From contig JBHLON010000004.1 of NCBI GenBank assembly GCA_048940445.1, positions 1 through 64,000 on the forward strand: DNA of 64,000 nucleotides, given 5' to 3'. The translations under genes were made by a program, and so were the position numbers. The stretch's first letter is position 1; each line of letters begins with the position of its first letter. Below, one piece after another: positions 43,223 through 47,260 of this stretch. The notes below the pieces were generated by a model that searched no databases, had not been told where the DNA came from, and was given only the letters and a program-made list of their open reading frames with translations. This stretch comes from Promethearchaeota archaeon (GTDB taxonomy: Archaea; Asgardarchaeota; Lokiarchaeia; Sigyniarchaeales; SOKP01).

Positions 43223-44932
43223 TTAATCTTTCACGGTTTCTAAAAGTTCCTCTATTTCAGACTGGATAACTTCTGGCTTTTTAGCTTCTTCCCCTTGAAT
43301 TGCTAATGCACGCTCTAAACGTTCCCGATGCAATGTATTCATTGCACAAAAGGGAACCTCTAATACCTTACTATTATCCTCTGGATCAATTACTCCATAG
43401 TGAACAAGACATCTACACACTCTATCTAAATCGAAATTATATGAATCTTGAAAATGCATCGAGGAGATTAGTAGGTTCTTCTCGTGGAAGAACATCCCAG
43501 CCGATTGTAGGTTAGGGAATGCAATTAAGCGAGAAAATGCTATTAATGTTTTGCTATCCATAATCTTTGTAGGATTACGCACGTATCTCATTGCCCCAGC
43601 AAAATAGTAAGCTTTCATTAATTGTCGATAACCTAGATTAGTCATATCGTCAACAAATTTACCTATTGTAGTTGCAACGCTGCCAAATTGTTCTAGATTG
43701 ATCCCCTTAAGAAGTCCAGTAGGTTTTGGAATTTCTTGTTTCATAGCCATGTCATATACTTTATTTGACCAGCTGATAAGTCCTTCTGCATCGAAGTAAT
43801 TTTCAATGGGTTCATATTCACCGTTTTTGTTTACCACGACGATGGTGGCAAATCCACAATCGGCATGGCTAGTTGGGCTCCATTCAGGCACGTCATCAAA
43901 CCATGCCAATAATCTGGTCATTTTGGCAGTGGTAGCTAATGGATAGAAATTATGTATAGCGTTATTGGTATGTTCATTTAGCGCTATTTTCAAATCCGAG
44001 GTTGTATAGCGTATATCCATTAAATCCTCAAAACTTATACGTCCACATAGAGATACTGGCTGATAGATTACTCCTGAAATGACATCATTGTTATCTCTAG
44101 CAAAATCCATAATTTTACCAACTTCTTTATCATTTACACCTTTAGCTATAACTGGAACAAGCATTACACCATAAAAACCGAGTTTACGGGCATTCTCAAT
44201 AACTCTTTGTTTTAAAGGCCAGAGATTTACACCTCTTATTTTTTTCCATACTTCAGGGTTATCGGTTGCATCAAATTGTAAATATACAGCATCCATTCCA
44301 GCATCTTTACATTTTTTCATAAATTCAATTGATTTAGCAAATCTAACTCCATTAGTAGTCACCATAACTTCGATAAACCCTAACTCTTTACCTTTTCGAA
44401 TGATTTCGGGTAAATCATCTCTAACAGTTGGTTCACCACCGGAGATTTGTAATAATACTGCTGGTGTGGGTTTCATAGATCGAAAATGTTCCATAATTCG
44501 AACAATTTCATCGTAAGTTGGTTGGACAACATATCCCTTTGCGCTGGCATTAGCAAAACAAATTGGACATGCCAAATTACATCTATTTGTTATATCAATT
44601 AGACATATATTGGGAGCACTTTTATGATTTTCACAAAGTCCACAATCATAAGGGCAACCTTGAGTACATTCTTTTATTCCTGAAGATACATATTCAGGTT
44701 TTGTTGTATGATTCACTGTTGAGCCAATATCATCAGTAAACGTTTGTTGCCATTTATAATCTTCTGGATCTATGCTAAGCTTATCTTTAAATTCACCGTG
44801 TTCTTTACATTTTTTTCTCATCATTACCCAGTTTTTGCTGTCATCAACGTAAATTTCTGCAGGAATCGGCTGTAGGCATTCTGGACAGATACTTGTAGTG
44901 CGTCTTATAATTTCTTCTGTCATATTAATCAA
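43223..44932 (-). CDS. tes: Tetraether lipid synthase (Tes/GDGT-MAS, MJ0619 family) radical SAM enzyme
   Basis: N-terminal CPEC...CKEHG, CPYDCGLC, NRCNLACPICFA, HADCG, MHFQDSYNFDLDRVCRCLVHY, PFCAMN. Confidence 0.88.
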   Translation of the reverse strand: MINMTEEIIRRTTSICPECLQPIPAEIYVDDSKNWVMMRKKCKEHGEFKDKLSIDPEDYKWQQTFTDDIGSTVNHTTKPEYVSSGIKECTQGCPYDCGLCENHKSAPNICLIDITNRCNLACPICFANASAKGYVVQPTYDEIVRIMEHFRSMKPTPAVLLQISGGEPTVRDDLPEIIRKGKELGFIEVMVTTNGVRFAKSIEFMKKCKDAGMDAVYLQFDATDNPEVWKKIRGVNLWPLKQRVIENARKLGFYGVMLVPVIAKGVNDKEVGKIMDFARDNNDVISGVIYQPVSLCGRISFEDLMDIRYTTSDLKIALNEHTNNAIHNFYPLATTAKMTRLLAWFDDVPEWSPTSHADCGFATIVVVNKNGEYEPIENYFDAEGLISWSNKVYDMAMKQEIPKPTGLLKGINLEQFGSVATTIGKFVDDMTNLGYRQLMKAYYFAGAMRYVRNPTKIMDSKTLIAFSRLIAFPNLQSAGMFFHEKNLLISSMHFQDSYNFDLDRVCRCLVHYGVIDPEDNSKVLEVPFCAMNTLHRERLERALAIQGEEAKKPEVIQSEIEELLETVKD

Positions 44933-45883: not shown

Positions 45884-45929
45884 ATTAAAATTTTTTTTTT
45901 TTTTGGTAATCAATACAAACTCAGTTTAT

Positions 45930-46056
45930 AAAAGGGAGACTCCTGCCACCAAGACCTAAAAGCAAGGTCAAAAACAAAATAGGGGGAGGAGGGCGAAATC
46001 AGAGTGTGTTTTCACACACTACCAAAAGACAAAAATCCAGGGTGGTAGCAGGAGTC
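45930..46056 (-). ncRNA. Putative structured non-coding RNA (~120 nt), family unknown
   Basis: 14-bp terminal helix that needs a G.U pair only on the minus strand, 7-bp stem with a GAAA tetraloop, a second hairpin, a 3' CCCUUUU tail, and local GC enrichment. Confidence 0.6.
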
Positions 46057-46375
46057 ATAACTTATACTTTTTTTTATTCCCTATTTTGATTTTGGTTTGT
46101 ATTTACTATGCTTTTTAAATTTTTATCTTCTTTATGAATTAATATTGGATACAATTGTATTTTTAATTTTTATCTTATGCATTATATAATTGCGGATATA
46201 TTTAAAATAATTGTTGATACGTCATAAATTTTATACATAAAAGAGAATTTTTGTTAGTTTCTTAAGTCTTGCATCTCTTATTTTATACGATTTCAAAGAA
46301 TTTGCAAAAATGATGAACTTAAAATCAAAATTACATTCATAAAGAATAATAAAATGAAATTAATATAAACTTATT

Positions 46376-46759
46376 ATGACTTTAAATCACTCATCTGAAA
46401 AAAAACAATCACATTTTAAATTATATCTATTTTCAGTTATATTTTCCATAATAGGTTTCATAGTTTCATGGTTTAATATGCTATTAATATTAGAAAGCTC
46501 CAAATACATTGAGGTTCTTGCCTACTTATCAATAATACTTACAACCATGATTCCAGGAGTAATAATTGCTTTAAAAAAAAGATATTGGGGATATTCTTAT
46601 CTTTCGGGATTTTCTATTGCTGGAATTCCTTTTATGATATTGATAGATTTATTTATCGGGGCGTATACGTGTATTACTACTATTTTTATATTTGCTATTT
46701 TATGGTTAATATTTTGGAAAGCTTGGCGTTCTCTTGATTCAATAAAGATAGAAGAATAA
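46376..46759 (+). CDS. Small 4-TM membrane protein
   Basis: Hydrophobic 127-aa ORF. Confidence 0.7.
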   Translation: MTLNHSSEKKQSHFKLYLFSVIFSIIGFIVSWFNMLLILESSKYIEVLAYLSIILTTMIPGVIIALKKRYWGYSYLSGFSIAGIPFMILIDLFIGAYTCITTIFIFAILWLIFWKAWRSLDSIKIEE

Positions 46760-46774
46760 AGAAAAATAAATCAT

Positions 46775-47260
46775 TTATTTGGAATGTATTGGTATATCTT
46801 CTATAGTAACATCGTTGACTCTTTTTATCTCAAAAAACTTGTTCTTAATTGTTTCTATGTTAATATTCCCCGATTCGAGAGAATCTCCTATCAAATATGT
46901 TTCATAAAAGCATTTTTCTAACTCATAGCAGATTCCAGTCGTATGTAATATATCTTTACTTAAATTTAGTTTATTTAAAACTTCCGAAATCCCCTTCACT
47001 ATTTCTGGGGAGAATTCTTCTAATTTAATTAGTATTTTTTTTATTACATTTGTATTTATAGGGAAGCAACTTACTTTTATAACATCTTCTCTTGAAATAA
47101 ATATTAATAAATAGTATGGTGATTCCGTAATTTCATCTTTTACTTCATCGGGGAAAATGGTGGAATTTAAATCTTCTTTTGTTATTATCAAGCCTATAGA
47201 AATTTTATTTTTATTTTTACTCTCAGCATTATAAGAAACCATAAGTATCAAAAACTCCAA
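46775..47260 (-). CDS. Hypothetical protein (start probably ATG at 47242)
   Basis: Plausible soluble ORF with an HTTGIC motif; possibly an ACT-like C-terminus. Confidence 0.65.
   Translation of the reverse strand: MEFLILMVSYNAESKNKNKISIGLIITKEDLNSTIFPDEVKDEITESPYYLLIFISREDVIKVSCFPINTNVIKKILIKLEEFSPEIVKGISEVLNKLNLSKDILHTTGICYELEKCFYETYLIGDSLESGNINIETIKNKFFEIKRVNDVTIEDIPIHSK

Follow-up and report, generated by a model that had tools for sequence, protein, structure and literature searches.

What kind of gene, if any, occupies the spacer between positions 45884 and 46375 of the window (the whole 64,000-nt stretch of archaeal DNA that was analysed), in which no open reading frame of at least 40 aa is present? 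Within this interval a 119-nt element on the minus strand (45938-46056, from the first to the last base of helix P1) forms a GC island, with a GC content of 0.40-0.44 against 0.14-0.23 in the surrounding spacer. The predicted minus-strand fold (46056-45938) has an energy of -44.5 kcal/mol (z = -6.05), equalled by none of 200 shuffled sequences, and the plus strand of the element folds more weakly (-38.8 kcal/mol, z = -5.0). Read 5' to 3', the RNA consists of the first P1 strand, a single strand termed J1/2, hairpin P2, a pyrimidine-rich strand J2/3, hairpin P3, the second P1 strand and a CC-UUU tail (Table 1). An earlier note on this DNA had described a structured RNA here, and we recovered all of its parts at their positions: P1, P2, P3, the unpaired tract, the tail, the upstream complement and the flanking inverted repeat. 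In the minimum free energy fold J1/2 is single-stranded save for a weak GGAU/GUCU mini-stem. We also considered a competing stem at the U-rich strand, CUACCA/UGGUAG, and set it aside; this copy has the pairing, most copies are without it, and it has no covariation because one of its sides is invariant.

Table 1. Positions of the RNA features and flanking elements in the window.
Feature	Sequence	Position	Strand	Remark
P1 5' strand	GACUCCUGCUACCA	46043-46056	-	pairs with 45938-45951, 14 bp including one U.G
P1 3' strand	UGGUGGCAGGAGUC	45938-45951	-	partner of 46043-46056
J1/2, invariant single strand	CCCUGGAUUUUUGUCUUUUGGU	46021-46042	-	contains the Sm-site-like GAUUUUUGU
P2 hairpin	AGUGUGU-GAAA-ACACACU	46003-46020	-	covarying stem, variable loop
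J2/3, pyrimidine-rich single strand	CUGAUUUCGCCCUCCUCCCCCUAUUUUGUUUUU	45970-46002	-	variable among copies
Unpaired tract	CCCUCCUCCCCCU	45981-45993	-	unpaired in the predicted fold
P3 hairpin	GACCU-UGCUUUU-AGGUC	45953-45969	-	99% of cells paired
3' tail	UCCCUUUU	45930-45937	-	likely terminator or 3' U-tail
Upstream element	CAAAAUAGGG	46079-46088	-	complementary to CCCUAUUUUG, 45975-45984
9-bp inverted repeat, upstream arm	AAUACAAAC	46095-46103	-	probably incidental
9-bp inverted repeat, downstream arm	GUUUGUAUU	45912-45920	-	partner of 46095-46103

The fold is strongly supported by comparison among copies. In an alignment of 62 same-genus copies, which were gathered by BLAST and not by use of the motif, 90.6% of the cells are paired and double changes occur at 22 of 25 pairs, while slid controls give 28-44%. 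Conserved, covarying homologues extend well beyond the genus: over 79 diverse copies 88% of the cells are paired, double changes are seen at each of the 25 pairs, and covariation reaches 0.51 as compared with 0.02-0.07 in slid controls. In P1 the outer 9-10 bp are paired in 94-97% and the inner part in 79-82%, with double-sided changes at every pair (alignment A5); the P2 stem occurs as GUGUGU/ACACAC, GUGCG/CGCAC, GCGUG/CACGC and AACGCG/CGCGUU; and all five pairs of P3 are doubly changed, for example to GACGC/GCGUC, GGCC/GGCC and GGUUC/GAACC. The minus strand had been proposed from a wobble pair and from the GNRA loop of P2. The first argument holds in the well-aligned helices, the only place where the strand signal is clear (G.U against A.C, 76:14; over all pairs a weak 139:112). 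The second fails because the P2 loop varies: its sequence and length differ among copies, and only this copy and those most closely related to it have GAAA. We also examined a coding reading, given that an ATG lies 5' of P1 in 76 of 112 copies, but the length of P1 varies by 1-5 nt, which shifts the frame relative to the invariant block, and the coding reading was therefore rejected.

No Rfam 15 family matched at its gathering score anywhere in the window, and searches at E up to 10 returned only noise around the element; the RNA of 15 diverse members of the family was equally without a match. A tRNA or tmRNA identity was dismissed after a scan that gave none, and a full-text literature search found no paper on this RNA. 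The proposal of a novel Asgard small RNA is thus borne out, in the form of a covarying, strand-specific and multi-copy family that matches no known one. We consider it very probable from these comparisons that the element belongs to a real and independent family of small RNA genes, and we stress that the expression, the ends and the strand of the gene are predicted from sequence alone.

Using covariance model R1, with which the window copy scores 145.8 bits, we found the RNA in 123 of the 131 genomes of the window's GTDB family, which belongs to the Loki-type Asgard archaea, at 1-18 copies each, and in one genus of a sister family. None of 121 genomes from 24 other Asgard families contained it in the covariance-model search. 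The RNA family is limited to one archaeal family and one genus, and is not a general Asgard feature. NCBI labels naming Hermod-, Hod-, Thor- and Odinarchaeota might have suggested an Asgard-wide range; we rejected them as such a sign because the 'Odinarchaeota' contig belongs to the window's own GTDB genus and because the other Asgard families gave no copy. A viral origin was likewise set aside, as only one of five exact motif matches in IMG/VR, on a 225-kb contig, is a member of the family, and a weak and partial one.

That partial copy, the number of copies per genome and the 9-bp inverted repeat around the window copy could be taken to indicate a MITE, as the earlier note had suggested, or another mobile element, or else the cis-regulatory leader of a neighbouring gene. 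The genomic context speaks against all of these. The divergent 132-aa neighbour is common to 42 fetched loci, the open reading frame after it to 39 and the downstream radical-SAM gene to 38, and from this shared locus we take the window copy for a stable gene rather than for a MITE. Each paralogue subfamily has its own conserved neighbours, which are unrelated between paralogues. The copies are 70-98% identical and are separated by compensatory substitutions, rather than being nearly identical, and we saw no transposase-like open reading frame beside the element. Nor is the inverted repeat conserved or beyond chance: its length was reached in 46 of 500 shuffles of the flanks, a 9-bp repeat of another sequence stands at roughly this place in the closest orthologue (L009), and four further orthologues lack one. 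Since the open reading frame downstream of the RNA is convergent and the neighbours of the paralogues differ, a leader or riboswitch is also disfavoured, and we regard this whole group of explanations as very improbable. The neighbouring open reading frames of 127, 161 and 251 aa had no RNA-related Pfam match and resemble membrane or unknown proteins; they were accordingly dropped as candidate partners of the RNA.

The probable ends of the transcript can be placed from the flanking sequence. Most copies have the pattern N(1-3)-CC-UUU after P1, and TTT follows within 8 nt in 82 of 112 copies. The upstream element CAAAAUAGGG sits at -32..-23, where a TATA box is expected, and the RNase P RNA gene of the same genome has TTTTTATA upstream at the equal position; the 10 tRNA genes detected in the genome were too few for a promoter consensus. 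The same element is the upstream complement that had been thought to allow an alternative fold, and it may serve as a promoter element at the TATA position or, as the arm of a leader, pair with J2/3. In the second case the RNA would be a longer precursor or a pseudoknot, in which AAAAUAGGG of the leader and CCCUAUUUU of J2/3 form a helix P0 that crosses P1, so that the pyrimidine strand would be masked until processing, or P0 would be part of the mature fold. The complementarity is real and partly covarying. RNAduplex energies are -12.7 kcal/mol between the upstream sequence of a copy and its own J2/3 and -10.8 kcal/mol with the J2/3 of others (0 of 5000 permutations); the best Watson-Crick run scores 18.1 against 13.1-14.9 in reversed, far-upstream and downstream controls; and 75% of the cells pair in an unfitted MAFFT alignment, against 52-58% in slid controls. 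Compensated variants occur as UAAUAUAGGG/CCCUAUAUUA in L057, AGAAAGAU/AUCUUUCU in L037, AACUAAA..GGGAGA/UCUCCC..UUUAGUU in L047 and GGCAAGAAUUUUC/GAAAAUUUUUGCC in L079 and L111, and in five copies an insert puts GGGG beside CCCC. However, the signal is weak among 46-47 representatives (Wilcoxon p = 0.006-0.47; permutations 37-60/5000) and is strong in only about 6 of these 46-47 clusters, the count of doubly changed pairs does not exceed that of shuffles (231/500), and an upstream complement is absent from many copies whose J2/3 is the same, the C105 copy of the window's own genome included. In the window copy and the main subfamily, moreover, the element lies exactly at the TATA position, and if it is a TATA box there it would not be transcribed. 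The alternative fold therefore concerns a subset of copies only, and we judge it unlikely as an account of the family.

The part of the RNA under the strongest constraint is J1/2. In the alignment of the 62 same-genus copies 16-17 columns are invariant, with just one or two of these outside J1/2, and the 22-nt strand is essentially invariant over 12 genera while all three helices drift by compensatory substitution; the rare variants are transitions (G->A in L061, L033, L041 and L053, and U->C in the second L130 copy). Sm rings contact about 7 nt of RNA. The Sm site has the consensus RAU3-6GR with stem-loops on both sides (PMC2582628), and single-stranded RNA rich in U is a ligand of archaeal Sm proteins (PMC3710371). 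The invariant GAUUUUUGU, located between P1 and P2, agrees with eight of the nine consensus positions and has U in place of the 3' purine. We also observed three matches to the LSM domain (PF01423) in the window's own genome, and 80 of 81 genomes of the order encode such domains, with 3-4 each. Sm-like genes are present in every family of the order and their presence is not discriminating, as it extends to lineages that lack the RNA. We considered an Sm paralogue specific to the RNA-bearing lineage and find no support for one: the LSM counts are 3-4 versus 3 per genome, and the one paralogue that was traced, of 142 aa, is present in each family of the order. That the invariant J1/2 strand binds an Sm ring is a tentative reading, somewhat less likely than not, for which the match to the consensus argues. 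The 22 invariant nucleotides exceed what such a ring needs, and a second constraint may act on the strand as well, be it tertiary contacts, a further protein or a conserved RNA with which it pairs.

Pairing with a conserved cellular RNA is the core of a different explanation, that of a guide-type RNA whose J1/2 would pair with an rRNA, pre-rRNA, tRNA or other non-coding RNA and take part in processing or modification or in control at the ribosome, whether or not an Sm ring is bound. An invariant strand of 22 nt between drifting helices is typical of RNA-RNA interfaces, its few variants are transitions, and the genome contains 80 complements to the strand, somewhat more than the 6-60 for shuffled queries, most of the 80 being A-rich and of low complexity. 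Against this, we found no convincing complement to J1/2 in the window's own genome; that MAG and two single-contig relatives lack assembled rRNA genes. The RNA also has no C/D or H/ACA boxes. The established archaeal guide sRNAs of these two classes are similar in being small, abundant families with conserved protein boxes beside variable strands. They differ from the present RNA, which lacks the RUGAUGA of C/D box sRNAs (a CUGA at 46002-45999, after P2, is unconserved and reads CUCAUUU or CUUAUUU in other copies) and has neither the ACA of H/ACA sRNAs after its terminal helix, where most copies have the tail pattern described above, nor a K-turn motif. We therefore regard a guide function as unlikely, at about the level of the P0 precursor.

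The second single strand, J2/3, is on average 75% pyrimidine and varies between paralogues within one genome. CCUCC occurs in 61 of 112 copies and is absent from 51, CCCUAU occurs in 67 of 112, the strand is replaced in some whole subfamilies, and in five copies it is split by an insert of about 30 nt with a hairpin. The earlier note had seen an anti-Shine-Dalgarno-like tract here and had offered an SD-targeting regulator as one reading, and one can imagine an RNA that mimics the anti-Shine-Dalgarno sequence or acts as a sponge, its CCUCC strand repressing translation at ribosome-binding sites and its J1/2 serving structure or stability only. The exposure on which this rests stands, as CCCUCCUCCCCCU is unpaired in the predicted fold; furthermore, GGAUCACCUCC forms the 3' end of 16S in one family member, and the SD-like motifs GGAGG, AGGAG, GAGGT and GGTGA are enriched 3-5-fold in the 20 nt before the open reading frame starts of this genome. 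The conservation does not fit: the pentamer, to which the likeness is limited, is missing from nearly half of the copies, whole subfamilies have replaced the tract, and the strand that is truly conserved is J1/2. Perfect complements of at least 11 nt to J2/3 number 83 in the window's own genome, inside the range of 18-149 for shuffled queries, so that complementary sites are not in excess genome-wide and no trans target stood out by perfect complementarity. We consider the mimic or sponge quite improbable. As regards a pairing seed in the pyrimidine strand, its composition and variability are suggestive, and this role appears somewhat doubtful.

Several known classes of RNA were compared with this family. 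The Y RNAs, including the bacterial Yrl RNAs, are alike in their paired ends, pyrimidine-rich internal loop, 3' U tract and several paralogues per genome, and a Y-RNA-like RNA of a Ro60 particle had been put forward on the basis of this layout. Y RNAs carry the Ro-binding site as a conserved bulged helix in the terminal stem. No such helix exists in P1, whose outer part is without a conserved bulge and whose irregularities are confined to its variable inner part. The TROVE domain (PF05731) was not found in the window's own genome (93% complete) or in 60 more of the family (36 of the 61 are of high quality) in a search whose positive controls, Deinococcus and Bacteroides, both matched; the Y RNA reading fails on this result. 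The Y RNA models of Rfam gave no match either, even at E up to 10. The resemblance is one of layout only, and we find a Ro60 particle scarcely credible. Searches for the La and Vault domains, run without a positive control, found neither in the window's own genome.

Among the closest known counterparts are the eukaryotic Sm-class snRNAs (U1, U2, U4, U5, and U7 with its variant site). The U-rich single strand GAUUUUUG fits RAU3-6G, and human U2 has UGGAUUUUUGG and U7 AAUUUGUCUAG, both near UGGAUUUUUGUCU of this RNA. The snRNAs are also small, have several gene copies and are accompanied by genome-encoded proteins of the Sm family, and their Sm site is held between two helices in 'domain A' as J1/2 is here (PMC2582628). 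Unlike in snRNAs, the base after the G is U, the invariant block spans 22 nt with a second U-run, and the RNA has no recognisable sequences for pairing with splice sites or branch points; the snRNA models of Rfam gave no match at E up to 10. The range of the RNA, one archaeal family and one genus, argues against descent shared with snRNAs. The bacterial Hfq-dependent sRNAs are alike in the proposed logic of a U-rich platform for an Sm-fold protein beside a stem, and in their 3' GC-rich helix with a U tail, exposed variable candidate seed and paralogues per genome. They belong to another domain of life and show no homology, and the present RNA differs in that its ends are paired in a closed three-way layout, conservation peaks at the presumed protein site and not at the seed, and no target stood out among perfect complements.

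Taking these observations together, we hypothesize that the locus is a vertically inherited small RNA gene whose product forms a ribonucleoprotein with an Sm-like ring and carries a pairing strand, an overall reading to which we assign a probability of roughly 0.45. The stand-alone gene at 46056-45938 (minus strand) would be driven by a promoter of its own, with AAAAUA near -28 as the TATA-like box; transcription would begin at P1 or slightly 5' of it and stop at the CC-UUUU tract that follows P1, giving a structured product some 120-130 nt long. The RNA would act as a ribonucleoprotein in which the U-rich J1/2, kept open between P1 and P2, offers a dock to protein; a ring of archaeal Sm-like proteins is the most probable occupant. 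The variable pyrimidine strand would be the specificity part, pairing with purine-rich RNA such as SD-like GGAGG or GGGGA; paralogues, in which this strand varies, would therefore address different targets. The fuller notion of an Sm-core particle of a Loki-type Asgard archaeon, i.e. a stable Sm-like ring on RNA with the pyrimidine strands of the paralogues aiming at different purine-rich RNAs, seems doubtful as a whole. If it exists, such a particle most likely arose independently, or as an offshoot specific to this lineage, rather than being ancestral to the snRNAs.

Asgard archaea are the closest known relatives of eukaryotes. To our knowledge almost no structured non-coding RNA has been described for them beyond the universal RNAs and guide sRNAs, and a full-text literature search found none. 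The present family is uncatalogued, with textbook covariation, near-universal occurrence in one lineage, up to 18 paralogues and an exposed, invariant strand that resembles an Sm site, and model R1 together with alignments A4 and A5 would permit its annotation in roughly 95% of the family's genomes. If the RNA binds an archaeal Sm ring, it would supply a defined natural ligand for the SmAP proteins, whose function stays obscure, and a simple system for studying how Sm-core RNPs assemble in a prokaryote; a true Sm-core particle would be the first snRNP-like Sm particle, stable and RNA-specific, outside eukaryotes. If the partner is another one, the family would still mark a strongly selected RNA-protein or RNA-RNA system in these archaea.

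The elements that the earlier note had listed for 46056-45938 are all present on the minus strand, where it had placed them (see the table). On that strand the 131-nt stretch has a folding energy of -44.5 kcal/mol, where dinucleotide shuffles give -24.4 ± 3.3 (z = -6.05; 0/200), while the plus-strand fold is weaker (-38.8, z = -5.0). The GC content of the element, 0.40-0.44, makes it an island in a spacer of 0.14-0.23; no ORF of at least 40 aa lies between 45884 and 46375, and neither a tRNA scan nor an Rfam search of the element gave a match.

Elements of the small-RNA gene copy in the window
Feature	Coordinates	Strand	Basis
P1 terminal helix, 14 bp including one U.G	46056-46043 with 45951-45938	minus	sequence read
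P2 hairpin AGUGUGU-GAAA-ACACACU	46020-46003	minus	sequence read
P3 hairpin GACCU/AGGUC	45969-45953	minus	sequence read
Unpaired tract CCCUCCUCCCCCU	45993-45981	minus	
3' tail UCCCUUUU		minus	
Upstream CAAAAUAGGG, complement of CCCUAUUUUG	46088-46079; 45984-45975	minus	
Flanking 9-bp inverted repeat AAUACAAAC/GUUUGUAUU	46095-46103 / 45912-45920		

The genome from which the window derives (3.64 Mb, 93% complete) carries three copies, on contigs C59, C80 and C105, and all 24 of the same-genus genomes first searched contain between one and nine, at 70-98% identity. Sixty-two copies were aligned (A2, A3), a covariance model, R1, was built with P1, P2 and P3, and the copies were re-aligned. In this re-alignment (A4), which like A5 is fitted to R1 and so favours the model, 90.6% of cells pair and two-sided changes occur in 22 of 25 pairs, compared with 28-44% pairing for slid structures and 0 of 500 shuffles as good. 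When one genome per GTDB species was scanned for the exact motif, more than 114 stretches matched, almost all from Asgard MAGs, and R1 recognized 79 elements among the 80 loci returned. Across these 79 diverse copies (A5), 88% of cells pair, two-sided changes occur in all 25 pairs (384 cells), and covariation scores 0.51, where slid structures reach 0.02-0.07. Individual helices change in compensated fashion: in P3, GACCU/AGGUC becomes GACGC/GCGUC, GGCC/GGCC or GGUUC/GAACC, and in P1, GACUCCUGC becomes GAUCCUUCC, CCUUACUU and others. Because of the size of the effect and these plainly visible swaps, there is no doubt, despite the model-fitted alignments, that the RNA structure is under selection.

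The earlier note had assigned the RNA to the minus strand from a wobble pair and the GAAA loop. G.U outnumbers A.C by only 139:112 over all pairs, the A.C cells being concentrated in four badly aligned columns, and by 76:14 in the well-aligned helices, which supports the minus strand for the window RNA. The loop does not generalize in the same way: GAAA is confined to the window copy and its closest relatives, and elsewhere the P2 loop is AAU, UCU, UUU, CUUAA etc.

From 5' to 3', members of the family consist of the P1 5' strand, J1/2, the P2 hairpin, J2/3, the P3 hairpin, the P1 3' strand and N(1-3)-CC-UUU. J1/2, CCCUGGAUUUUUGUCUUUUGGU, is the sole fixed part: among 62 copies found by BLAST, without use of the motif, 16-17 columns are invariant, and J1/2 holds all except one or two. 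J2/3 spans ~30 nt with a mean of 75% pyrimidine; CCUCC is found in 61 and CCCUAU in 67 of 112 distinct copies, and the 5' half of the pyrimidine tract is substituted in some subfamilies. Five copies (L028:1505-1664, L029:1414-1573, L031:1498-1656, L060:1415-1571 and L068:1485-1650) have a ~30-nt insert in J2/3, a covarying hairpin (CCGUG/CACGG or CCAUG/CAUGG) followed by GGGGAAU immediately 5' of CCCCC, whose GGGG could pair in cis with the C-run; these five lack the upstream AUAGGG. At another locus (L014:1485-1676, minus strand), ~24 nt 5' of P1 duplicate the start of the RNA (AUGACUCCUAAA AUGACUCC...), shifting the AAAAUAGGG element out to -54..-38.

The proposal of a novel Asgard sRNA holds: the family is covarying and multi-copy, Rfam 15 contains no such family, and full-text literature searches returned no paper on it. 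A Y RNA, the layout that the earlier note had likened it to, is rejected, as no Y RNA model matches and TROVE/Ro60 was not found in the source genome or 60 further genomes of the family, in searches whose positive controls matched. The C/D and H/ACA sRNA readings are rejected as well: the RNA has neither RUGAUGA nor a conserved CUGA, and it lacks an ACA tail. The downstream ORF is convergent and neighbours differ among paralogues, which argues against a leader or riboswitch, and P1 varies in length by 1-5 nt, which puts the invariant block in different frames and argues against a coding reading. The element represents a genuine family of small RNA genes, lineage-specific and not yet catalogued. 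As a separate observation, the SRP RNA of the source genome (G000:C101:170391-170669, minus; L203) scores 75.7 bits against an Archaea_SRP gathering score of 96.5, and would therefore be missed by standard annotation.

A MITE-like element had also been suggested. Clustering of the ORFs that surround the copies places the window copy at an orthologous locus: a divergent 132-aa membrane-protein gene (46376-46759) is common to 42 loci, the next ORF (46775-47260) to 39 and a downstream radical-SAM gene (43223-44932) to 38, and each other paralogue subfamily has conserved neighbours of its own. No RNA-related domains were found in the neighbour genes. The length of the flanking 9-bp repeat is reached by 46 of 500 shuffles; in the closest orthologue, L009, another 9-bp repeat (UUAAAACAA/UUGUUUUAA) stands in roughly this position, and in four more orthologues there is no such repeat. 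We therefore discard the MITE-like reading and treat the repeat as incidental, although the flanking repeats might conceivably form a short leader-trailer stem in the window and L009 species. The RNA is a gene, not a mobile element.

Within the window's GTDB family, R1 finds the RNA in 123 of 131 genomes and 12 of 13 genera, at 1-18 copies per genome. Elsewhere in the order the only carriers belong to one genus of a sister family, the order's three other families giving 1/14, 0/1 and 0/4 positive genomes. A phylum-wide draw gave 29 of 29 genomes in the window's family and 0 of 121 in 24 other Asgard families. Loci from the motif scan, L113 and L123 among them, lie on records labelled Candidatus Odin-, Hermod-, Hod- or Thorarchaeota. 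A wider Asgard range based on these NCBI labels is rejected: the 'Odinarchaeota' contig L113 belongs to genome G021, of the window's GTDB genus, and the submitter labels look wrong, at least for the 'Odinarchaeota H3B.4' contigs, which are of that genus. IMG/VR yielded five exact motif matches, one of them a weak partial member (L189:39-144, IMGVR_UViG_3300029288_000001, 225 kb; 37 bits) with the invariant strand, P2 and CUCCCCCUAU, a weak P1 and no P3; this contig, filed as viral, is perhaps archaeal and misfiled, or else a very large mobile element. A 20-nt exact J2/3 match, GATTTCGCCCTCCTCCCCCT, lies at L034:1501-1520 in G026, a genome of another family of the order without the RNA, within a GC-richer unannotated stretch with no Rfam match.

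An alternative fold, in which CAAAAUAGGG pairs with CCCUAUUUUG, had also been proposed. In many copies 10-16 nt upstream complement the 3' portion of J2/3, with compensated variants (UAAUAUAGGG/CCCUAUAUUA; AGAAAGAU/AUCUUUCU; AACUAAA..GGGAGA/UCUCCC..UUUAGUU) and, in a divergent subfamily, an unrelated pair (GGCAAGAAUUUUC/GAAAAUUUUUGCC). Upstream sequences pair better with their own J2/3 than with those of others (-12.7 vs -10.8 kcal/mol; 0/5000 permutations), the best Watson-Crick run scores 18.1, as opposed to 13.1-14.9 in the reversed, far-upstream and downstream controls, and in the unfitted alignment A2 75% of upstream/J2/3 cells pair vs 52-58% when slid. The match is no accident of the window copy. 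The signal shrinks, however, when close relatives are collapsed to 46-47 representatives (p = 0.006-0.47; permutations reach the observed value in 37-60 of 5000); only about six clusters show it strongly, and many copies share the same J2/3 without the upstream complement. The window element lies at -32..-23, the position of TTTTTATA upstream of this genome's RNase P RNA gene; if it is a TATA box it is untranscribed, and the complementarity then needs another explanation. We consider pairing between J2/3 and a transcribed leader unlikely.

The GAUUUUUGU within J1/2 departs by one base from the Sm-site consensus RAU3-6GR (PMC2582628), and Sm sites likewise sit between helices (PMC2582628). U-rich single-stranded RNA is a ligand of archaeal Sm proteins (PMC3710371), and the carrier genomes encode 3-4 LSM-domain proteins. 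J1/2 may bind an Sm ring; against this reading, Sm genes also occur in lineages without the RNA, the 22 invariant nt exceed the contact of one Sm ring, and a search for an Sm paralogue specific to RNA-bearing lineages found none. J1/2 might instead pair with a conserved RNA; the rRNA genes are unassembled in the source genome. Two observations concern the Sm-like genes themselves. One in the source genome (L184:1483-1774, G000:C26, minus; compared with L194:265-525) is split into an N-terminal 33 aa (MERRPNRPIDYLKNS...RGK) and a C-terminal 46 aa (MNLYLEGTSQIF...), ~49 nt apart with stops and a frame change, where a same-genus orthologue is an intact 86-aa ORF; this may reflect a misassembly, pseudogenization or a small insertion. 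In G011 (L193:282-826, C22) another lies immediately upstream of a ribosomal protein L37e-like gene, and this paralogue was not found in the source genome (93% complete).

Targeting of SD sequences by J2/3, as the earlier note had suggested, is a candidate role. The source genome uses SD-like motifs, which complement the 16S 3' end read in a member of its family, GGAUCACCUCC; against a mechanism of Sm platform and pairing, no targets stood out when that genome was searched for complements. Its longest trans match to the window J2/3 is a perfect 15-nt complement, AACAAAATAGGGGGA, at G000:C112:3420-3434 (plus; L005). The family's RNA is closed, has three helices and leaves two strands exposed, an invariant U-rich one and a variable pyrimidine one; we infer that the invariant strand, J1/2, would serve as a platform for protein binding, and the variable strand, J2/3, could pair with purine-rich RNA.
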